A stretch of DNA of 64,000 bases from Minisyncoccota bacterium (GCA_041389085.1 JAWKSL010000001.1:34921-98920), one strand, 5' to 3'; counted from the first letter of the stretch, positions 13,437-63,720 are shown. Notes: generated from the letters alone by a model not told the origin. Program-made: numbers and translations.

Positions 13437-13511
13437 AATATGGGCTACGAACACCTTGGCACGATGCTAAGTTAGTAGATGCCCGATAGACTCCGAAGAA
13501 AGGTTTCTATC

Positions 13512-14078
13512 ATGCAAGGTAAAAAGATCACAATCGATCAGGGCAAGGAAGCTCTTGATCTTCTGAGCCGGCTCAGCCCGGAGCAGTACCAGGAGAGACG
13601 CGCTTGGTTGGCGCGCATTAGCGATCCTCGCTTTAACCCCAACATGCTCAGGCTATTCTACCCCTTCAAGGCTAATCAACCGTTCCAGTGGAACTGCCGC
13701 GGAGTTGAGCGCGAAGGAGCTGTCTGCGAGGCGTCTGTCACCATCGCCGATCTTGAGCTCGTCCCCTTCCACAAGGATGGTGAGAAGTGGATCAGTGGCG
13801 AAGAGATGCGCACTCGCGCTGCCGACGAGGAGGCCTACCCGGGGTGCTCAGGCTTCGGCCAGCACCAGGCCGAGGACATTCTCGAGCGAGCCTCTGAGCT
13901 GCCCGAGGAGTTCCGTAAGTACGTGATCGTCTTCGCGGACTCCGTTCTTTTGGACGGCGTCTGTCATCGATACGTTCCGTTCCTCGCCTGGGATGGCGGC
14001 CGGTGGCAGCTGAACTGGCGCTGGATCGATAGCAGCTTCGAACGCGTCTGCCGATTCCCTCGGCTGCGGCGTGAGTAG
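13512..14078 (+). CDS. Hypothetical protein (188 aa) in high-GC cassette A, distantly related in its C-terminal half to the cassette B protein
   Basis: Long GC3-rich ORF and ATG at 13512 after an AAAGG SD-like site. The ORF-track start at 13479 is an upstream extension. No known domain recognised. Confidence 0.6.
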   Translation: MQGKKITIDQGKEALDLLSRLSPEQYQERRAWLARISDPRFNPNMLRLFYPFKANQPFQWNCRGVEREGAVCEASVTIADLELVPFHKDGEKWISGEEMRTRAADEEAYPGCSGFGQHQAEDILERASELPEEFRKYVIVFADSVLLDGVCHRYVPFLAWDGGRWQLNWRWIDSSFERVCRFPRLRRE

Positions 14079-14269: not shown

Positions 14270-14329
14270 GTTTGAACTGTCTGGGGCTGCATCGGTGTAG
14301 ATGTGGCTGGAGACAGTGGAGCAACAATC

Positions 14330-14926
14330 ATGTCTACAGACACCCGTTTAGATCTTGGAGCCGAACTCGACCGAAAGGTGCGAGAGAAGGGTGGCACGCG
14401 CGAAAATATCGCGCTCGTACTCAGGGAGCGGCCTGACATCATTGATGCTTGTGCCGCCCTGATTGTCGACGCAGCGCGTGAGACGAAGGTCAAGATTGAG
14501 CTCTCGATCGTCGTCGGCGAGGACGAGACTTTCGATAGTCTCGTAGCGGCCGGGCATTACGGCTCGAAGGGCGACTGGGTCACCGGAGAGCAGTTCCCTG
14601 TTCGTCCGAGCCAGCCTGGCGAGCGCCAGCTCGTGCTCTTGCACTTCGCCCGCGTCGTCTCCTCCGAGAATGCAATCGATGAGGCAGCCAAGCAGGGCTT
14701 GGAGCGTCCTACCTACGAAGACGCCTTGCGCTTCGGTGCTCAGCACCCTGAGGTGCAGTGCCAGTTCCCGGTCGTTTTCCTTCATGAACCCCTGCCGGAC
14801 GCGTACGACGGCCCGAGCGTCCTCTGCCTCGATTGTCGCGCCTCGGGGCGCGACCTGGACTACCGCTGGTTCGACGGCGGTTGGGGTTGCCTCTACCGCT
14901 TCGTCTTCGTCCGCCCTACAGCGTGA
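14330..14926 (+). CDS. Hypothetical protein (198 aa) in high-GC cassette B
   Basis: GC3-rich ORF with ATG at 14330 and GGAG 9 nt upstream. The 3' end and terminator module are shared with cassette A (gcgtgagtaggagccgNccacaacaatgacccc...). Confidence 0.6.
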   Translation: MSTDTRLDLGAELDRKVREKGGTRENIALVLRERPDIIDACAALIVDAARETKVKIELSIVVGEDETFDSLVAAGHYGSKGDWVTGEQFPVRPSQPGERQLVLLHFARVVSSENAIDEAAKQGLERPTYEDALRFGAQHPEVQCQFPVVFLHEPLPDAYDGPSVLCLDCRASGRDLDYRWFDGGWGCLYRFVFVRPTA

Positions 14927-36289: not shown

Positions 36290-36982
36290 TCACTCGCGCG
36301 GAGCGAGGAACTTGTCCATGGGAACACCCATGCCGTTGAGCGTCAGGCTGTGAGGCCCGACCCCGGCGGCACTGCTCCAGTCGATGGCGAACTTGTCGCC
36401 AGGGCTCACCGTGCCTTCCCAACGAGCCTCATCGCCGTTTGCGAAGTGGATGAGCAGGCGTCCGTGCCTTGGCCCGTAGAGCCAGACCGGCTGCCCGTTC
36501 TGGAAAGCCCAGATCTGGTTGCAGTTCTTGTCCTGCGGGGTGTTGAAGTACCCATTGTCCGGGTAGATCATGCGGTCGATGCCAACCCCTGTGTAGAACC
36601 CTGTCTCCGGATCGCGGATGGCCTGAGGGCCACCGTACATCCAGTTACCACCACCGACGCTGTAGTCGCACCAAGCGTAGCCATCGATGGCGCATTCGGC
36701 GTTGGGCCGGATGCAGACACAGAAGTCTGTAGGCTGGGGCGCGGTAGGCGGAGGCGGCGGGGGCGGCGGGGGCTGAGTGCAGTTACGGCAGGGGCGAGGC
36801 CCGCTGTCGTCGTCGTCCAGATCAAGGAAGTAGCCGCCGACGATGACACCACCGACGAACTCGATGAGCCCGCAGGGGATGCAGCCAAGGGCTGCGAGGA
36901 ATCCGCCAGCACCGCATCCGCCGATGATGACACCGGAGGTGATGAGGACTGCTGCGGTCGCGTTGCGCAAGGCGTTGAGCAT
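36290..36982 (-). CDS. High-GC secreted/membrane-anchored hypothetical protein (230 aa): Gly-rich hydrophobic N-terminus, poly-Pro (P9) linker, Cys-containing C-terminal domain
   Basis: ATG at 36982 preceded by AAAGGAGG. The ORF-track 37120 start is an upstream extension. About 65 % GC versus the 45 % surroundings. Confidence 0.6.
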   Translation of the reverse strand: MLNALRNATAAVLITSGVIIGGCGAGGFLAALGCIPCGLIEFVGGVIVGGYFLDLDDDDSGPRPCRNCTQPPPPPPPPPTAPQPTDFCVCIRPNAECAIDGYAWCDYSVGGGNWMYGGPQAIRDPETGFYTGVGIDRMIYPDNGYFNTPQDKNCNQIWAFQNGQPVWLYGPRHGRLLIHFANGDEARWEGTVSPGDKFAIDWSSAAGVGPHSLTLNGMGVPMDKFLAPRE

Positions 36983-37043
36983 GGTTAGCTCCTCCTTTGG
37001 GCGCCCTGCGCCCAGAAGTTGGGGTGAATTTGAAAGATCTCTC

Positions 37044-37073
37044 ACTAACTCGCAAGAGCTAGTGTTGAGCCAA
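37044..37073 (-). promoter_or_regulatory. Promoter TTGACA-18-TAATAT for the GC-rich gene
   Basis: Read directly on the minus strand. Confidence 0.55.
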
Positions 37074-37111
37074 ATATTAGCATATAAGTTTGTATTTGTC
37101 AATAGATAACT

Positions 37112-37137
37112 AAAAAGCACCCGAAAGGGTGCTTTTT
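37112..37137. terminator. Bidirectional terminator aaaaagcacccgaaagggtgcttttt
   Basis: Read directly. Confidence 0.8.
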
Positions 37138-57984: not shown

Positions 57985-58096
57985 TTGTCTCTATTATAGC
58001 AAAACAAAAAAACTTGACAGTTTCTTTGTTTTTATATATTTTATTTCTAATTCCGATCGCAAATTGGTGCGCGGAGTTAAAACGAAAGGAGGCTAT

Positions 58097-58261
58097 ATGC
58101 CTCGAGACAAGAGTGGCAACGCCGATCGTCGATCCAAGGATCGTGACAAGAGGCGCACCCCCAAGGGCCCTCAGACCCACAAGAGTGGCGGGCGTCAGCG
58201 CAACGTCGGGCACCCCCGTGGCGAGGAACACTCGCGCATTGCCAAGGGTAACCGCGGCTAG
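58097..58261 (+). CDS. High-GC small basic Gly/Arg/Lys-rich protein (54 aa) immediately upstream of the M16 peptidase gene
   Basis: ATG preceded by AAGGAGG (58086-58092) with GC3-rich codons. MPRDKSGNADRRSKDRDKRRTPKGPQTHKSGGRQRNVGHPRGEEHSRIAKGNRG. Confidence 0.55.
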   Translation: MPRDKSGNADRRSKDRDKRRTPKGPQTHKSGGRQRNVGHPRGEEHSRIAKGNRG

Positions 58262-58271
58262 CCCTCTCACG

Positions 58272-58310
58272 GCCTGCTATGGTTTAAAACTATGGCAGGC
58301 TAATTTTTTA
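58272..58310 (+). terminator. Rho-independent terminator (gcctgctatgg..ctatggcaggc + taatttttt)
   Basis: Hairpin with two G-U pairs plus a T-run. Confidence 0.65.
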
Positions 58311-58342
58311 CCAAATAAAGCTATACTTAAAAAGTATATAAT

Positions 58343-59587
58343 ATGAACTCTTGGCCCACCCTTATTTATCTTCCATCAGACAATCCCTTTGTTACCATGA
58401 AGGTCTATTTTCGTACTGGTCCACGCTATGAAAGCCTAAGACATCGTGGATTGTCTCATATTATTGAACATATTGTTTCTGATCTATTCGAGAAAAAGCT
58501 TTCAAGAGCTACTCGCCTACCAGCCTGGATTCGCCCCTTCTCTCTAGACACCTTTTCTGCCAGCACTCATTTTGAGTTTTGCTCTTATGAAATTTCGATT
58601 GATCAAAAAAACTTTTGGAAGTCAGCCAGCTCTCTTATATCTTCCTTCGCCCCACGGAAGATCACCAACTCATTTCTCTCCAAGCAAAAGAAAATTGTTG
58701 CTTCTGAGGCGCATGAGAGTATGCAGGCGAATGGTTTTGCGCTTGCTGCACAGAAAGCACATTTCCAAGGAAGTTCTTTGGAAAGGAGATTTATCTCTAA
58801 CCAAGATTATTTAAAAGATATTACCGCTAATAATGTATTTGATTACTGGCATCAAACATATCAAGCACGGCACTGCACTGTTATGATATCTGGGAACCTC
58901 ACACGCAATACTCTTCTCAGACTCAAGAAACTACTCGTCAAATCCCTACCCTCTCAACTCGAGATGAGCTTGCCTGATGACTTCTCTATAGACCTTAAGA
59001 GAAATATCCTTCATCTTTCGCAAGATTCTCTTCCTGGCACCTCTATCGAGGCTTCTTTTCTGCGCCCTGCAACAAAACCCTACGACATTCTATTGGCACA
59101 ATTTTCTATGTACCTCCTTGTTGAATATTTGGAGTACCAGCTCCGCGAAAAGCTGGGTATATTGTATTCCGTTAAAACAGATGTTATATCGGGAAGTGAC
59201 TTTGTTTACAATTCTTTCGCCCTTGATTCACCAAGCTCCCCGCTGGAAACCATACAAAAGCTTCATAAGTCCTTAAAATCTTTCCCGAGGATAATTACAA
59301 AAGACGTTTTTTCCAAAGCCCTTCAAAATCATAATCTTGCGCTAAGTAGGCAGGCGGGCGACCATAATTCTTTTTTACGTATGCTTGAGTCTTTTATCCC
59401 GCTATCTTCAAGCTCAATCCCCTCAGATAAATCTGAATATTTGAAGATTGCCCGCTCCCTGAAATTTGTTGACTTTCAAATCTTTGCTAAGTCTCTTTCG
59501 CAACACCTTAATCTTTCTGTTGCGGGAAAGATATCGAAAGCGTCTGCTGAGACCCTCTCGCGGCAACTTGGACTTGATATTATCTAA
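58343..59587 (+). CDS. Peptidase M16 (pitrilysin/insulinase) family protein
   Basis: Inverted zinc-binding motif HIIEH (HxxEH) near the N-terminus. Two-domain size (414 aa). Confidence 0.75.
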   Translation: MNSWPTLIYLPSDNPFVTMKVYFRTGPRYESLRHRGLSHIIEHIVSDLFEKKLSRATRLPAWIRPFSLDTFSASTHFEFCSYEISIDQKNFWKSASSLISSFAPRKITNSFLSKQKKIVASEAHESMQANGFALAAQKAHFQGSSLERRFISNQDYLKDITANNVFDYWHQTYQARHCTVMISGNLTRNTLLRLKKLLVKSLPSQLEMSLPDDFSIDLKRNILHLSQDSLPGTSIEASFLRPATKPYDILLAQFSMYLLVEYLEYQLREKLGILYSVKTDVISGSDFVYNSFALDSPSSPLETIQKLHKSLKSFPRIITKDVFSKALQNHNLALSRQAGDHNSFLRMLESFIPLSSSSIPSDKSEYLKIARSLKFVDFQIFAKSLSQHLNLSVAGKISKASAETLSRQLGLDII

Positions 59588-59676
59588 AGTAATTTTACTA
59601 TACTCTAAAAAGTGCGAAGCCCTGCCGAGTGATTGCTCACTGGCAGGGCTTGCTGTGATCGGAAAGTAGCGTGGGG

Positions 59677-60114
59677 CTACTCCTCGATCTCTTGGAAGGC
59701 CGGCTTGCGCAGACCGTCTACCTCCATTTGGAGGTGAGGCTGGCCCGGGACGAACCAGACGTCTTCGCTCCAGATGACTTCGCCGTCCTGGAACTCTGCG
59801 CCGATCTGAATCCAACCACCCTCGGGTGGTAGATTCTTCTCGACGATGTCTCGGTTCCAGACCTTACCGACATAGCCGACCTGAACGCCTACACCCCCGA
59901 CACCAACCCCTCCGGTCGTCAAGAAACTTCCGTCAGGGTCGCGCACCGGGAAAGCGTAGATCTCGCGACCCATGCTGTCCATGTTGAGCACAGATGCAAC
60001 CTGGGTCGCATGGACGTCGATGGGAACGGGGGTTCCGCTCCCGGCCGACCCACCACCGCAGGCGGTGAGGGTGAGTGCCAGCGCGAGGCTGGCGAGGATG
60101 AAGTAGATGCGCAT
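59677..60114 (-). CDS. High-GC lipoprotein (signal peptide with LTAC lipobox), hypothetical
   Basis: ATG at 60114 preceded by GGAAGGAGG. The ORF-track start at 60135 actually spans the SD. MRIYFILASLALALTLTACGGGS. Confidence 0.6.
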   Translation of the reverse strand: MRIYFILASLALALTLTACGGGSAGSGTPVPIDVHATQVASVLNMDSMGREIYAFPVRDPDGSFLTTGGVGVGGVGVQVGYVGKVWNRDIVEKNLPPEGGWIQIGAEFQDGEVIWSEDVWFVPGQPHLQMEVDGLRKPAFQEIEE

Positions 60115-60200
60115 TCGCGCCTCCTTCCCCAGCATGTGCTGGCTTCTAACTTGCCTTGAGCGCTACCCACCGTGGGCTGCGCTTTCGCAAGACTAATTTT

Positions 60201-60235
60201 TGTATAGCAAATAATTATTGTTTTGTCAATGTCAA
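60201..60235 (-). promoter_or_regulatory. Promoter with tandem TTGACA boxes, 17-nt spacer and TATACA for the GC-rich lipoprotein gene
   Basis: Read directly on the minus strand. Confidence 0.5.
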
Positions 60236-60334
60236 GTCATTGGCTGTGGATAATTATTATCCCCTTTTTCAGCGCTTTTGAATGCCTAAAACTGCTACAA
60301 TAGTAGGTAGATAATTAATCGTATATACGTTTTC

Positions 60335-60892
60335 ATGGACCCAATTCAAACTCAGCAAGGGCCAGTACAACCTGCTGCCCCTTTGCAAGCTGCTCCGAGC
60401 GCACCAATGCCTGTAGCAGAATCTGCTCCGCATAAGCGCGGAGGGCATATCGTTCTCTTTATAATTATTTTTATACTTGGCATTGTGCTCGGTGGCTTCC
60501 TTGGCTACCTCTGGCGAGGCATGAAAATAGACGAAAGCCTTATTTATGATCAGGCAGCTCTGGAGAGTGCTGCTGCGGAGGCTCACTCTCGTGTTCTCTC
60601 TGAGATTGAAGCAGAAAAATCCGCTGCTTTAAAAAGTGCAATTGGGGAGGTCCTCAGTGTTGAAGCGACCAGTATTCGTATACGGTTTTCTCGAGAAGGG
60701 ATTGGGGAAGATTTGCTACTACTTACCGATGAGAATACAAAATTTTCTTCTTTTGATAACTCAACAGATATCCCAACTCCGGTTGAAATAACTGCTGCAG
60801 ATATAGTGGTGGGAGATACAGTAACTGCCAACTTTAATGAAAGTGTCGAACAAAACCTAGAACTATACGCATATGAAATCATTAAGATATAA
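60335..60892 (+). CDS. Single-pass membrane protein with Pro/Ala/Gln-rich N-terminus, hypothetical
   Basis: One TM (IVLFIIIFILGIVLGGFLGYLW). No motif. Confidence 0.45.
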   Translation: MDPIQTQQGPVQPAAPLQAAPSAPMPVAESAPHKRGGHIVLFIIIFILGIVLGGFLGYLWRGMKIDESLIYDQAALESAAAEAHSRVLSEIEAEKSAALKSAIGEVLSVEATSIRIRFSREGIGEDLLLLTDENTKFSSFDNSTDIPTPVEITAADIVVGDTVTANFNESVEQNLELYAYEIIKI

Positions 60893-62168
60893 AAAGAAAA
60901 AGCAGCACCCACTCGCTGTAGCGCTCTGCCTACTCTTTCTTTCCTTTGCAGCCTTCGTTGTAGTTAAAAACGCTTCAGCAGTAGAGCTCAATGGTCAGGC
61001 AGACTTTCGCCTTTCCATTCAACTTAACGATAAAACCTGTGGTCAGCAAAATGGCACTCCGCGATCTGCTGGATTTTTAAGTCAAGGAGCCGGATATGCT
61101 CAATCGGATTGGGCGACTGACTCAAATGGTTTTGATCCTGACTGTGCTCGTCTAGGCCTTGAATCTCAAGGTGGAAACACTGTTCCGACTACCGACTTTC
61201 GGGTATGTATACAAGTAAGTGATGATATTGCTTATAGCTTTATGAGCCAAAGAGTAGTTAATGTGAACCAAGTCGGTATTGAGCGTTGCACCCCATATGT
61301 TAGTGAGGGTGGTGGTTGGAGTGAGTGGGCTTACGATGGAGGTACTGGGTCCGATCGAGCATTTGATCCTGATGCTGTCCGTCTTCGAATAGAAGCTAAT
61401 AGCACTCCTTTAGAGGGTATTGAAATTGATAATATGAGATTCGGCATTCAACTCTCTGATGATCAATGTACGGGCCAGTTTGGAGCGCCGGAGTTTACTC
61501 CTTGGCTTGTAGATGTTGGGATGAATAGCGCCTCTGAGCACTGGTCAAACTGGGCAAAGGATGGGGGGCCAAACTACAAAGACCCTGACTGTGTACGCAT
61601 AAAAATGGAAGTCATCACAAACCCAGTTGGTAATAATGAGGACGAAGAGCTTCCTGACACTCCTGCATGTTCTGATGGTATAGACAACGACAGTGATGGT
61701 TCAGCTGACTATCCAAGCGATCCTGGATGCGCCAGCGCTGACGACAATAGTGAAGCTGATAATGCTCAGAATGCTTGCGAAAACGGCGAAGACGATGATG
61801 GAGATGGCCTTGTAGACATGAACGACCCTGGCTGTGCTAGCCCAAGCGATGATGACGAGACCGACCCTATTGCCTGCAACTTTGCTGCAAACCCAACTTC
61901 GCTCGTAAAAGGAATTGGTACGAGTAAACTTACCTGGGACTGCCGACACAGCGACGGAACAGTTATGACCGGTACCGTATCTATTGTTGACGACAACGCT
62001 GCGCAAACATTTGCTGGCCTTGGAAACAACCTTGGTGCAGCAGGGTCTGTAAACGTTGCTCCTGAACAGACTACACGCTTTACTCTCAGCCCATCTCTCT
62101 CAGGACTTATTCCTGAAACAGCAACGGTGCGTATAGAAAACAGTAGCTTCGATGAAGATATTCCGTAG
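60873..62168 (+). CDS. Secreted protein with three copies of a ~85-aa novel repeat followed by Cys-bracketed acidic (TSP3-like) repeats
   Basis: Signal peptide. Repeats DFRLSIQLNDKTCG.. / DFRVCIQVSDD.. / NMRFGIQLSDDQCTG... CSDGIDNDSDGSADYPSDPGC and CENGEDDDGDGLVDMNDPGC. Confidence 0.55.
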   Translation: MKSLRYKKKKQHPLAVALCLLFLSFAAFVVVKNASAVELNGQADFRLSIQLNDKTCGQQNGTPRSAGFLSQGAGYAQSDWATDSNGFDPDCARLGLESQGGNTVPTTDFRVCIQVSDDIAYSFMSQRVVNVNQVGIERCTPYVSEGGGWSEWAYDGGTGSDRAFDPDAVRLRIEANSTPLEGIEIDNMRFGIQLSDDQCTGQFGAPEFTPWLVDVGMNSASEHWSNWAKDGGPNYKDPDCVRIKMEVITNPVGNNEDEELPDTPACSDGIDNDSDGSADYPSDPGCASADDNSEADNAQNACENGEDDDGDGLVDMNDPGCASPSDDDETDPIACNFAANPTSLVKGIGTSKLTWDCRHSDGTVMTGTVSIVDDNAAQTFAGLGNNLGAAGSVNVAPEQTTRFTLSPSLSGLIPETATVRIENSSFDEDIP

Positions 62169-62189
62169 GAACTTATAAAACGATCTAAC

Positions 62190-62221
62190 AAAAAACTCTA
62201 GAGTTAACTCTAGAGTTTTTT
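62190..62221. terminator. Bidirectional terminator aaaaaaCTCTAGAGTTAACTCTAGAGtttttt
   Basis: Perfect 10-bp stem flanked by an A-run and a T-run between convergent genes. Confidence 0.8.
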
Positions 62222-62222
62222 G

Positions 62223-63461
62223 TTACGCGCTTATCTTTGGATCTTTTTTCGAGAAAACTGTGATTGATCTGTTTTCTTTTTTGAATATCTCCTTCGCTAA
62301 ACTCATCACCTTCTCTGGTTTTATATTTTTTAGCTCTTTGAGGAATTTCTCACCTGTCGCTCCCCTTCCATGAATTGCAATATTTTTGTACCACCAAATT
62401 CTTTCTGTAATGTCTGTATCATCCGAAAGCGTAGATGTGGTTAATGAGTTTTTGTGGTTTTCGAGCTCACCTTTGTTGAGATCTTTCTTTATTTTTTCTA
62501 GCTCTTGATTTATGAGGCTTATAGCTTTCTCTGCATTCTTGTTTTCAGCACTAAACCTAAATAAAACTGTTGATACATCAGCATACATGTCGAAATAGTC
62601 ACTTACCCAATAGGTTAGATTCTCTTCTATGCGAAGCTTTTTGTTCAATCTGCCAATCCAACTTCCTGCTAGCGCGCTCATTAGGGTTGCTGTAAGGACC
62701 TGCTTTTCTACCTCCTTTATCTGAGGCATTCTAAAGCTCACTGCGATTATCGAATTGCTAATATCTTTTTTTACAAATGAATATGCCTTTGGCTCTTTAA
62801 ACTTTTCCTTCCTTGCTTTTAAGGCTTTCCCCTTTATTACTCCTGCTGTTAGCTTTTCTAGCTCCTTTTCTATTTTCTTTTGATTGAAGTTTCCTGTTAT
62901 TACAAACACCGTGTTTGAGAGGGTGTAGTACCTTTTATACCAATCCTGAATATCCTTCTTGCTTATCGCGCGGATACTTTTTTTACTCCCGAGAACACTT
63001 CTAAACGATGACATTGGAAATAAATTCTCCAATGCAACTTCTGCTATCTGATCCTCTGGAGAATTTTCTCTGCTCGCTTGCTCGTCGATTATCGCCCCTG
63101 CCTCCTCTCTTACGTCTTGCTCTGTAAATTCACTGCTAAACATTCCATCTACAAAGACCTCTAGTGATTCACTTGTAGCCTCTTTTCTTTGAAGGTGATA
63201 GTAGTAGCTGTATTCGCTTCCAGTGTATGCGTTAAATTGAATTCCCTTTTCTGCAAGAAAATTAAGCCTATCTTGATAGATTGGAAACATTTTTGTTTTT
63301 TTCATGAGCACGTGCTCAAAGAAATGAGCTAATCCCTCTTTCCCTTTTATATCTTCGCGTGCTCCTACATTTACCCACGCAGAAATAAGCGAAAGCTTTT
63401 CACTTGGCTCGTTTACAAAAATTACTCTTGCACCTGATTTTAATGTTTTTTCGTTTTTCAT
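62223..63461 (-). CDS. Peptidase M16 family protein (second copy). Start at ATG 63461; the ORF-track N-terminal extension through the GC-rich segment is rejected.
   Basis: HFFEH (HxxEH) motif. The N-terminus MKNEKTLKSGARVIFVNEP.. is M16-typical. Confidence 0.75.
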   Translation of the reverse strand: MKNEKTLKSGARVIFVNEPSEKLSLISAWVNVGAREDIKGKEGLAHFFEHVLMKKTKMFPIYQDRLNFLAEKGIQFNAYTGSEYSYYYHLQRKEATSESLEVFVDGMFSSEFTEQDVREEAGAIIDEQASRENSPEDQIAEVALENLFPMSSFRSVLGSKKSIRAISKKDIQDWYKRYYTLSNTVFVITGNFNQKKIEKELEKLTAGVIKGKALKARKEKFKEPKAYSFVKKDISNSIIAVSFRMPQIKEVEKQVLTATLMSALAGSWIGRLNKKLRIEENLTYWVSDYFDMYADVSTVLFRFSAENKNAEKAISLINQELEKIKKDLNKGELENHKNSLTTSTLSDDTDITERIWWYKNIAIHGRGATGEKFLKELKNIKPEKVMSLAKEIFKKENRSITVFSKKDPKISA

Positions 63462-63497
63462 AAAAAGATGAGCGCACCCTTCAAGGAAGGGGCGCTC
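63462..63497 (-). terminator. Rho-independent terminator/attenuator (gagcgcccc..ggggtgcgctc + aucuuuuu) ending at the M16 start codon
   Basis: Hairpin plus U-run on the minus strand between the small-peptide gene and the M16 ATG. Confidence 0.55.
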
Positions 63498-63511
63498 TGT
63501 TGTTGCCCGGG

Positions 63512-63628
63512 CTACTTCCCGCGCTTGCCGGAGCCGCCGCCCGAGCTTCCGCCCTTGCCGCCGCGCTGGCCGCCGGAACCACTCCGGCCCTTGCCGCTCC
63601 CACCGGAGCCCTTGCTCTTCTTGCTCAT
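63512..63628 (-). CDS. High-GC tiny Gly-rich basic peptide (38 aa) upstream of the second M16 peptidase
   Basis: ATG 63628 preceded by AGAGGAGG. MSKKSKGSGGSGKGRSGSGGQRGGKGGSSGGGSGKRGK. Below the ORF-track size cut-off. Confidence 0.45.
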   Translation of the reverse strand: MSKKSKGSGGSGKGRSGSGGQRGGKGGSSGGGSGKRGK

Positions 63629-63720
63629 CACGCCTCCTCTCTTGGGGGTTTACTACCTGCAGACTATCTACCGGTAGTGATGGCACCCCTATATTCAGTT
63701 TTATTTACTTATTTGTCAAG

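Follow-up and report, generated by a model that had tools for sequence, protein, structure and literature searches.

A conserved glycine-rich peptide gene linked to M16 and C39-like peptidase genes in CPR bacteria

Two M16 peptidase genes and two GC-rich small ORFs

In the 64,000-nucleotide stretch of Minisyncoccota bacterium DNA that was analyzed (the window), two convergent M16 peptidase genes lie 2.6 kb apart, and each is preceded on its own strand by a small ORF with its own Shine-Dalgarno (SD) sequence and terminator. This arrangement raises the question of whether the small ORFs, here called smORF1 and smORF2, are genes, and whether the peptides they encode are substrates of the neighboring peptidases. 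A preliminary description had read the locus as symmetric substrate/protease pairs. All of the features and coordinates it listed are present in the sequence, including the convergent peptidase genes with HxxEH motifs, the small ORF with SD and terminator ahead of each, and the genes for a lipoprotein, a membrane protein and a secreted repeat protein between them.

The peptidase encoded by M16-1 (58343-59587, plus strand) contains HIIEH, which is HVIEH in the close relative L002, and the Pfam domains Peptidase_M16 (PF00675, 29.6 bits) and Peptidase_M16_C (PF05193, 42.2 bits) both scored above their curated cut-offs. It is divergent, and its best PDB match reached only E = 9e-5. M16-2 (62223-63461, minus strand) scored 73.6 bits for PF00675 (cut-off 22.3) and 89.6 bits for PF05193 (cut-off 23), and has the domain content of an M16B-type zinc peptidase, a class defined here as proteins of about 410-430 aa that combine Peptidase_M16 with Peptidase_M16_C. 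Using published descriptions of the M16 motifs (PMC12731061), we placed by eye HFFEH, EAGAIIDEQ about 77 residues later with the distal Glu, and LRIEENLTYWV with the R/Y pair. The gene has no SD and its product has no signal peptide. The best PDB relative of M16-2 was 3hdi (E = 2.5e-24, residues 2-393), the homodimeric M16 enzyme of B. halodurans (PMC12731061), followed by the beta subunit of the mitochondrial processing peptidase (MPP) at E = 1e-20.

Between the peptidase genes lie an orphan lipoprotein gene with an LTAC lipobox (59677-60135, minus strand), a gene for a protein with a single transmembrane segment (60335-60892), and a gene for a signal-peptide repeat protein (60873-62168) with a match below cut-off to the acidic double-disulfide repeat model NF033662. 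A palindromic terminator (62186-62225) is common to the secreted-protein gene and M16-2 and is kept in the closest relative, L001. None of the three intervening genes was found in the relatives compared. The local GC peaks are smORF1, smORF2 and the lipoprotein gene (0.60-0.72 versus a window mean of 0.46), with third-position GC of 0.73, 0.90 and 0.75, respectively, and 0.33-0.40 in the neighboring genes. The lipoprotein gene probably lies outside the module proposed below.

Two unrelated families of small coding genes

The first small ORF, smORF1 (58097-58261, plus strand), encodes a small basic protein of 54 aa, MPRDKSGNADRRSKDRDKRRTPKGPQTHKSGGRQRNVGHPRGEEHSRIAKGNRG. Its SD (AAGGAGG, 58086-58092, plus strand) is preceded by a promoter-like site (58014-58042, plus strand; TTGACA, 17 nt, TATTTT) within a non-coding stretch of ~112 nt that is 96% identical in L002, and it is followed by an intrinsic terminator (58271-58309, plus strand; hairpin 58271-58301, then a T-run; -21.2 kcal/mol, z = -3.8) whose stem is maintained in L002 by paired changes. 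The 54-aa orthologue carries no indels, and dN/dS is 0.27, the lowest of the six frames. No Pfam or NCBIfam family matched at E <= 1. An exhaustive library search returned 14 matches at E <= 1e-3, one of them an insect cuticle-domain protein and the other 13 family-like. The pattern of the family is MPRDKSGN..EDRxKRR..KGP..GRERNVGHxxGEEHSRVxKGNRG (alignment A3).

The second, smORF2 (63512-63628, minus strand), encodes a 38-aa peptide, MSKKSKGSGGSGKGRSGSGGQRGGKGGSSGGGSGKRGK, and is a divergent member of a Gly-rich family that was unannotated until now. We assembled 23 non-redundant loci of this family, from CPR lineages and a few other bacteria; a DNA pattern for the peptide only, searched in 185k species genomes and JGI metagenomes, gave 19 informative non-redundant loci. 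Members are 33-54 aa long, typically roughly 35 residues. Their N-termini differ in length, and the 32 C-terminal residues form a nearly invariant core with RGK at its end. None contains Cys. The C-terminal signature is ...GSGGQxGGxGGSxGGGxGxRGK-stop, within a core of G(S/K)GGHGxG(N/R)xGSGGQ(S/R)GGxGGSxGGG(T/S)GxRGK-stop, and the 22 members aligned share 16 invariant columns (alignment A4). The window copy has the core, the SD and the terminator and fits every invariant column; the near-invariant His of GGHG is missing. As the preliminary description had noted of both peptides, no leader/core motif is recognizable, and alignment A4 bears this out for smORF2.

Entropies at the three codon positions of the Gly-rich family were 0.41/0.44/1.50 over the 12 codons that the search pattern left free, third positions vary freely, and invariant Ser positions are encoded by both TCN and AGY across the family, so that it is the peptide on which selection acts. 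The smORF2 family is thus real, coding and conserved as a peptide. No Pfam or NCBIfam model describes it, with no family at E <= 1 for any member tested, and there was no exact-sequence match in a collection of 15 billion proteins; gene callers either miss the gene or wrongly call it as an N-terminal extension of the M16 protein.

It could be argued that both ORFs are chance openings in GC-rich insertions, or structured RNAs, since several frames are open in the GC-rich patches, no protein family matches, and smORF2 is absent from L001. This reading is effectively refuted by sequence comparison: the substitution patterns across codon positions are of the coding type, length and stop position are conserved, the 13 family-like matches of smORF1 and the 22 smORF2-family members stand against it, and an Rfam search gave no match. 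The preliminary description had allowed that the small ORFs might not be conserved as coding sequence; both are, smORF1 by its dN/dS and family-like matches and smORF2 by its codon-position entropies and Ser codon switches.

Linkage of the small genes to peptidase genes

In the family loci, the first gene that follows the Gly-rich peptide gene on its strand encodes an M16-2-type peptidase in 14 cases and a C39-like cysteine peptidase in three. Counted from the peptide side, an M16 gene lies immediately downstream on the same strand in 10 of the 19 informative loci, and a PF11814 "Peptidase_C39 like" protein is next in another 3/19. Counted from the M16 side, the peptide gene is upstream of five of six sampled M16-2-type genes (those of the window, L003, L005, L037 and L038; not L001). 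The co-occurrence of smORF2 with M16 genes that the preliminary description had suggested is therefore present, and comparison of these loci strongly supports a conserved linkage in many CPR bacteria. The peptide-linked M16 proteins are only 20-41% identical to the M16-2 protein of the window and keep an intact zinc motif (HFFEH or HFTEH). For the C39-like genes (L009, L011 and L029), PF11814 scores of 25.2 and 30.3 bits were borderline against a cut-off of 25, the L029 protein is 39% identical to that of L011 by tblastn, and the Cys motif LHC(F/E)QA and downstream His/Asp motifs were read directly. Two unrelated peptidase folds are thus found downstream of the same peptide core, and outside the peptide-peptidase pair the flanks share nothing between loci by tblastx.

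The linkage is not obligatory in either direction. L001, whose M16-2 is 82% identical to that of the window, has no peptide gene at the site, indicating that the M16 gene needs no neighboring copy. Four loci from GC-richer, apparently non-CPR organisms have the peptide gene and no downstream peptidase, and in two others it is followed by an unknown 114-117-aa gene, so that the peptide has a function for which no neighboring peptidase is needed.

For smORF1 the picture is different. Only the window and L002 have it ahead of M16-1; three distant members of its family stand alone, with no M16 in the vicinity, and by hhalign (probability 0.3%) the two families of peptides are not related. smORF1 is a separate conserved small basic protein gene whose position beside M16-1 is lineage-specific, and we take that position to be incidental. 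The idea of symmetric pairs in the preliminary description is therefore half right: the smORF2 linkage holds, that of smORF1 is not supported, and the mirrored layout is coincidental.

That description had further proposed that both small ORFs encode substrates or precursors of the adjacent M16 enzymes, which would act as an M16B processing pair in a RiPP-like cluster. The symmetric layout in the window, the presence of smORF1 upstream of the M16-1 orthologue in L002, and the short, basic, unstructured nature of both peptides, as is found in M16 substrates (PMC12731061), speak for this model. We nevertheless consider it improbable, given the distant smORF1 relatives that have no M16 nearby and the unrelatedness of the two peptides. 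A heterodimer of M16-1 and M16-2 does not fit the locus: in such pairs the two genes stay together and typically one protein is active and the other inactive, but here both proteins carry HxxEH, the genes are convergent, and those between them are absent from relatives. The premise of a pair is also weak more widely: in most loci with a peptide-linked M16-2-type gene, the 2.4-6.4 kb that follow contain no further M16, most of these genes have none within 5-6 kb, and the best solved relative, 3hdi, is homodimeric. Of the surrounding genes only that of the peptidase is conserved, with no modifying enzyme or transporter among them, and the Pfam tables of the contexts contain no rSAM, YcaO, LanM or ATP-grasp protein. 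Nor does the peptide have the layout of a RiPP precursor, in which the leader is conserved and the core, with its modifiable residues, varies: its N-terminus is variable in length, its C-terminus is nearly invariant, and it has no Cys.

Expression signals and a candidate peptide-peptidase module

In the window, smORF2 has the SD GAGGAGG (63633-63639, minus strand), read directly, and a TTGACA -35-like hexamer (63714-63719, minus strand) just past the stop codon of a Sua5/YciO-family gene; a promoter scan found no good -10 partner for it. The hexamer is kept in L001, where it stands directly ahead of M16-2. The intrinsic terminator (63462-63497, minus strand) consists of a hairpin (63470-63497) followed by ATCTTTTT. 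As the preliminary description had stated, it ends at the start codon of M16-2: the T-run (63462-63469) abuts the ATG (63459-63461), leaving M16-2 no room for a promoter or SD of its own. The hairpin alone folds at -19.8 kcal/mol, and a 66-nt stretch containing it at -25.5 kcal/mol (z = -2.8).

The same signals recur across the family. A strong SD (GGAGG) and a hairpin terminator accompany each copy, and a TTGACA-type promoter is present in most of those whose upstream sequence is readable. In 21/21 loci examined, a hairpin of -12 to -34 kcal/mol ends 18-63 nt past the stop codon, and in most of them a T-rich tail follows. In the window, L006, L011, L014, L015 and L029, <=14 nt separate the hairpin from the next start codon; the next gene is a peptidase in five of these six loci and the unknown 117-aa gene in L015. 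This spacing, in the window and at least five other loci, suggests that the peptidase is transcribed only by read-through and poorly translated. TATAAT-like boxes lie between the terminator and the M16 start in L007, L010, L020 and L026, so that co-transcription is not universal.

A terminator abutting the regulated gene, behind a short ORF with about 60% Gly codons, recalls trpL, hisL and leuL, which are short ORFs rich in one amino acid. If smORF2 were such a cis-acting leader, ribosomes stalled on its Gly codons would govern the terminator and, in the trpL/hisL manner, expression of the peptidase. We find this highly improbable. A leader that functions only in cis would be free to vary in sequence outside its regulatory codons, but here the peptide is strongly selected, with H, Q, S, T and the RGK end conserved as well as Gly, while Gly codons are used synonymously. 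The sequence is also the same in stand-alone copies, which have no gene downstream. Dot-bracket strings usually place the terminator stem proper about 6-34 nt beyond the stop codon, as at an ordinary gene end, which argues against ribosome occlusion, and no obvious antiterminator was seen by eye.

The best explanation of the smORF2 product is a predicted abundant, intrinsically unstructured Gly-rich mini-protein. We propose, with a probability of roughly 0.45, that it forms a two-gene module in which it is the dedicated substrate of the peptidase that follows. The strong SD, the terminator and, in most copies, the TTGACA-type promoter would give high peptide output, and read-through may set the stoichiometry, with much peptide and little enzyme. 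The scarce, dedicated partner would usually be an M16B peptidase from the M16-2 clade, cytoplasmic and with its HxxEH intact, and in some lineages a C39-like cysteine peptidase; it may trim the peptide to a shorter product or turn it over. M16 chambers take unstructured peptides of up to about 65-70 residues, and the cavities of MPP-type enzymes are acidic and bind basic peptides (PMC12731061). The absence from the peptide of Cys and of an export signal, the lack of a modifying enzyme nearby, and the atypical window copy with its missing His count against a substrate role.

The peptide may instead be an independent, highly expressed hydrophilic protein, stress- or nucleic-acid-associated and hydrophilin-like, whose promoter the peptidase exploits by read-through or with which it is co-regulated, neither substrate nor ligand tying the two together. 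The four stand-alone copies, the two ahead of a non-peptidase gene and the M16 of L001 with no peptide would agree with this, as would units that look monocistronic, with strong promoter, SD and terminator, and a hydrophilic, basic peptide that is predicted to lack structure. YciG and GsiB (hydrophilins, KGG-repeat) and RMF-like proteins are known examples of small proteins, hydrophilic and either Gly-rich or basic, that come from monocistronic genes with strong expression signals, and by analogy they offer the best comparison for smORF1; neither small ORF has a match to PF10685 or to any other Pfam or NCBIfam model, or a sequence relationship to these proteins that would place it among them. 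We consider an independent protein somewhat unlikely for smORF2, as promoter hitch-hiking fails to explain why a peptidase is downstream in 13/19 of the loci found through the peptide, or why two unrelated peptidase folds occupy that place while other neighbors vary.

Known systems offer partial precedents for the substrate reading. In sboA-albABCDEFG, as here, the gene for a small peptide immediately precedes M16B gene(s), and the hairpin between them is expected to give an excess of peptide transcript. The M16B pair AlbE/AlbF acts on a dedicated ribosomal peptide, subtilosin A (PMC12731061). Unlike that system, the loci described here have no radical-SAM enzyme, transporter or immunity gene, usually one M16, and a peptide with neither Cys nor leader/core; an AlbF homologue is only a weak PDB match to M16-2 (E = 1e-8). 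PqqA is likewise a tiny ribosomal peptide, and the M16 protease PqqF(G) accommodates it in its chamber (PMC12731061), whereas here there are no pqqBCDE genes and the peptide lacks the Glu/Tyr pair. M16-2 itself was rejected as PqqF (42 bits versus the TIGR02110 cut-off of 320).

Among solved structures, the best relatives of M16-2 are MPP and 3hdi, whose substrates are short, basic and unstructured, and the invariant RGK end of the Gly-rich peptide could, by analogy, fit the Arg-at-P2 rule. Unlike in MPP, the candidate substrate is a free-standing gene product and not a targeting sequence. C39-type peptidases cleave behind Gly-Gly, as in the processing of McbA (the microcin B17 precursor) and other Gly/Ser-rich bacteriocin precursors, which the peptide resembles in being Gly/Ser-rich and full of GG. 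It differs from them in the absence of Cys, a cyclodehydratase, a conserved N-terminal leader and an ABC transporter, and the C39-like protein is a stand-alone soluble PF11814 member. The conserved placement of the Gly-rich peptide gene directly ahead of a peptidase, seen in many ultra-small (CPR) bacteria, suggests a dedicated peptide-peptidase pair.

Two M16 genes and their surroundings

All features named in the preliminary description, which tentatively read this region as two symmetric substrate/protease pairs, are present in the window. The two M16 peptidase genes, M16-1 (58343-59587, + strand, HIIEH) and M16-2 (62223-63461, - strand, HFFEH), both encode proteins above the Pfam cut-offs for Peptidase_M16 and Peptidase_M16_C. 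Exact protein look-ups with the window's M16-1 and M16-2 returned nothing, as did a first scan of genome contigs with M16-2 as single query; NCBI proteins 100% identical to each of the two exist. M16-2 is a bona fide M16B peptidase; among solved structures, the homodimeric B. halodurans enzyme 3hdi is closest to it. A conserved heterodimeric pair of M16-1 and M16-2 was not supported. Upstream of them lie the small ORFs smORF1 (58097-58261, + strand, 54 aa, SD AAGGAGG) and smORF2 (63512-63628, - strand, 38 aa, SD GAGGAGG), which together with a lipoprotein gene form three GC peaks (0.60-0.72 against a window mean of 0.46), with a GC3 of 0.73-0.90 compared to 0.33-0.40 in neighbouring genes.

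Four complete GC3-rich orphan genes were identified in the window (13479-14078 and 14303-14926 on the + strand, 36290-37120 and 59677-60135 on the - strand). Their GC3 is 0.71-0.79 against 0.33-0.40 in their neighbours, lysine is encoded almost exclusively by AAG, and none has a match in Pfam or NCBIfam. They are discrete GC islands of foreign-looking composition and were possibly acquired horizontally. The gene at 60873-62168 (+), which shares 20 nt at its start with the end of the membrane-protein gene before it, encodes a secreted 431-aa protein with acidic Cys-containing repeats; its match to the acidic double-disulfide repeat NF033662 (35.9 bits) is under the cut-off of 41.

A Gly-rich gene linked to peptidases

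smORF2 belongs to a family of small proteins with a core ending in GSGGQxGGxGGSxGGGxGxRGK. Distant M16-2 homologues (30-32% identity) are immediately preceded, in the same orientation, by a near-identical small ORF, including those in the homologous loci L005 (MGKGGKGGHGSGNAGSGGQSGGSGGSTGGGTGTRGK) and L003 (MKSFGKGGSGGHGNGNAGSGGQSGGKGGSSGGGTGARGK). For a census from the peptide side, we used a degenerate DNA pattern for GSGGQxGGxGGxxGGGxGxRGK, which carries no information on neighbouring genes. The pattern matched 10 loci in 185,579 species genomes (Moraniibacteriota, Wildermuthbacteria, Kerfeldbacteria, Taylorbacteria, unnamed Patescibacteria, and one Tepidisphaerales) and 15 loci in JGI metagenomes, and removal of duplicates from both sets yielded 19 informative loci.

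Comparison of the members indicates that the Gly-rich gene is protein-coding and selected at the peptide level. The 12 codons that precede the pattern, unconstrained by the search, have entropies of 0.41/0.44/1.50 by codon position. Both TCN and AGY codons occur at the invariant serines, and glycine codons vary synonymously (GGC 165, GGT 129, GGA 72, GGG 13). Sixteen columns are invariant across 22 members, S28 and the C-terminal RGK among them, and the N-terminus is variable in length. The high GC of the smORF2 ORF is mostly a consequence of its GGN codons. Members were also found on contigs with a GC of 0.53-0.59 (L012, L018, L025, L027, and L028), one of which is labelled Tepidisphaerales (Planctomycetota), so the family is not restricted to CPR. 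In L018 a distant M16 gene lies downstream, and the other four are stand-alone.

Pfam, NCBIfam and PDB profile searches found no relative of the Gly-rich family, none of 10 smORF2-family sequences had an exact match in a collection of 15 billion proteins, and literature searches by motif strings and keywords gave no match. Viral contigs scanned for the motifs of both the smORF1 and smORF2 families contained neither. The Gly-rich family is effectively unannotated, and both it and its peptidase linkage appear to be undescribed. Gene callers skip the gene or read through it in another frame; it has no stops in its other frames, and one alternative frame stays open into the M16 gene, which results in falsely N-terminally extended M16 models. 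Examples are the 487-aa ORF at 62223-63686 (-) in the window, a 479-aa model in L003 (4797-6236), and the 478-aa database protein P0004 on the L026 contig. The gene caller of L003 additionally called a false 152-aa ORF across the peptide gene.

The next same-strand gene encodes an M16 peptidase in 10 of the 19 loci, with its start 75-165 nt past the peptide stop, and its best match was always M16-2 and never M16-1. Three loci have a PF11814 "Peptidase_C39 like" gene instead (25.2 and 30.3 bits against a cut-off of 25, the third assigned via 39% identity), two have a gene for a conserved 114-117-aa protein, and four, on GC-richer and apparently non-CPR contigs, have no same-strand gene next. 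In the other direction, the peptide gene lies upstream of five of the six M16-2-type genes sampled, among them those of the variants L037 and L038, which the pattern had missed. Flanks beyond the peptide-peptidase pair are not conserved between loci, and we estimate chance adjacency at well below 1% per locus, given roughly two M16 genes per CPR genome; the linkage of the Gly-rich gene to M16 is therefore real. The 114-117-aa proteins (L015:3448-3801 and L024:591-935) share the sequence MK..KNKYPLV+VVWRDSNIYR.QDS..., and no relative was found in Pfam, or in the PDB with the 117-aa protein. Rfam searches of the window region and six related loci returned nothing except a tmRNA in L003 (3612-4017, - strand, RF00023, 117 bits), which adjoins smpB just upstream of the peptide-M16 pair and is taken to be unrelated to it.

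The closest relative found, the Logan contig L001, has an M16-2 orthologue of 82% identity but no peptide gene at this site. It shares with the window a Sua5/YciO-family gene followed by a TTGACA hexamer, and then has a 40-nt spacer with GGAG ahead of M16. This spacer and the other GC3-rich orphans of the window had suggested that smORF2 is a lineage-specific GC-rich insertion, an idea that was rejected because distant M16 homologues carry the same peptide gene. Loss of the gene in L001 is thus the more parsimonious reading.

Each of the 21 examined loci has a strong hairpin (-12 to -34 kcal/mol) that ends 18-63 nt past the peptide stop, in most cases with a T-rich tail, and a TTGACA-type promoter and GGAGG SD are present in most loci with enough upstream sequence. 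The terminator hairpin of smORF2 reaches -19.8 kcal/mol alone and -25.5 kcal/mol in its enclosing 66-nt stretch (z = -2.8), and its T-run stops exactly at the M16-2 ATG. Folds of the smORF1 and smORF2 5'UTRs had no significant stability (z = -1.6 and -2.0). At most 14 nt separate the hairpin from the start codon of the next gene in L006, L011, L014, L015, L029, and the window; that gene encodes a peptidase in five of these six and the 117-aa protein in L015. Such spacing cannot accommodate a promoter or leave an SD free, and the downstream gene is therefore predicted to be expressed weakly, by read-through only. TATAAT-like boxes lie between terminator and start in L007, L010, L020, and L026, so co-transcription is not universal. 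As read from the sequences, the linked pair consists of a strong gene and, behind its terminator, a weak one. That the Gly-rich ORF works as a Gly-codon attenuator is unlikely, since its non-Gly residues are conserved equally and copies without a downstream gene exist.

smORF1 and its family

smORF1 is preceded by a promoter-like TTGACA-17-TATTTT, and its terminator hairpin folds at -21.2 kcal/mol (z = -3.8). The Logan contig L002, with an M16-1 orthologue of 65% identity, contains a 54-aa smORF1 orthologue (40/54 identical, no indels), and the terminator stem is kept there via paired changes. In this comparison the annotated frame had a dN/dS of 0.27, the lowest of six frames, with substitutions of 11:5:14 by codon position. 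Conservation as coding sequence, whose absence would have counted against the preliminary description, was borne out for both small ORFs.

When smORF1 was searched exhaustively with phmmer against 1.84 billion representatives, 14 matches at E <= 1e-3 were obtained, of which P0065 is an insect cuticle-domain protein. Most others have 49-60 aa and share the motif MPRDKSGN..EDRxKRR..KGP..GRERNVGHxxGEEHSRVxKGNRG. Pfam and NCBIfam have no family for smORF1, and neither a word-indexed protein search with smORF1 nor a PDB profile search with its family found anything. Three members are stand-alone genes with no M16 nearby, and remote homology between smORF1 and smORF2 was rejected (hhalign probability 0.3%). 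The symmetric layout therefore arose by coincidence, from two small-protein genes of different kinds. The substrate/protease interpretation retains its footing for smORF2, with its conserved peptidase linkage, and loses it for smORF1.

The smORF1 promoter and 5'UTR (57985-58096) are about 96% identical to L002:29-140, with 4 differences in about 112 nt, and dS between window and L002 is saturated at 2.9 in the adjacent M16-1 and just 0.50 in smORF1, which points to either strong regulatory constraint or recent cassette exchange. The C-terminal motif of the smORF1 family, RERNVxHPxGEEHSRVxKGNR preceded by KGSENRQP, is also embedded in four longer proteins (P0067, P0068, P0070, and P0071), three of which have long hydrophobic stretches after it. 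Pfam detects nothing on this motif in the four proteins. P0071 contains RHS-repeat remnants and a YDPETGRF core end, a hint of a mobile module that polymorphic-toxin-like proteins use as well. In L002, a 17-nt string (ttttactacaatcattt / gtttactacaatcattt) bounds the M16-1 locus on either side, with one copy at the start of a cobA-like gene (15-31) and the other just past the M16-1 stop (1644-1660); M16-1 is followed there by a gene that the window lacks. The repeat could be due to chance, to a scar left by recombination, or to a join made during assembly.

Possible roles of the Gly-rich peptide

Taken together, comparative evidence shows a Gly-rich mini-protein that is translated, highly constrained, and linked to active-site-intact peptidases of two unrelated folds. 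On the leading reading, the peptide would be made in excess over the scarce peptidase encoded behind it, and would be that peptidase's dedicated substrate, to be processed or turned over. C39-type peptidases have specificity for Gly-Gly, which would fit such a role. So would the acceptance by M16 enzymes of unstructured, often basic peptides of up to about 65-70 residues (PMC12731061). By analogy, the module would work most like the precursor-peptide/peptidase pairs sboA with AlbE/AlbF and PqqA with PqqF. It falls outside RiPP clusters, as a modifying enzyme is absent and the conservation pattern is reversed.

Stand-alone copies, the peptide-free site in L001, and the lack of leader/core logic, modifying enzyme, and export signal all speak against a dedicated substrate. 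In the strongest competing reading, the peptide is an abundant hydrophilic protein of independent function, with a neighbour that is co-regulated and no more. We put at roughly one in five the probability that stand-alone cytoplasmic M16B/C39-like peptidases in CPR have this widespread ribosomal mini-protein as their natural, dedicated substrate, in a minimal two-gene peptide-maturation module without a modifying enzyme. A defined Gly-rich product could be released by processing of the variable N-terminus or by a cut at a GG site. ATCUN is a classic amino-terminal Cu/Ni-binding end, and a cut just before the conserved GGH would create one in most members; the window copy has no His. Another possibility is a role in trans, in which the peptide would assist or regulate the peptidase in the way of the MPP-alpha glycine-rich loop.

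CPR/Patescibacteria have small genomes with many genes of unknown function. The Gly-rich gene adds to these a very strongly conserved coding gene that annotation misses or mis-merges into the neighbouring M16, and many of the "long" M16 models in databases, such as P0004, are artefacts. The peptide is a concrete, testable candidate for a natural partner of bacterial stand-alone M16B peptidases, few of whose physiological substrates are known. If the substrate relationship is true, no simpler dedicated pair of this sort would be known, and the pair would offer an entry point to the role of such peptidases in organisms that are not culturable alone.
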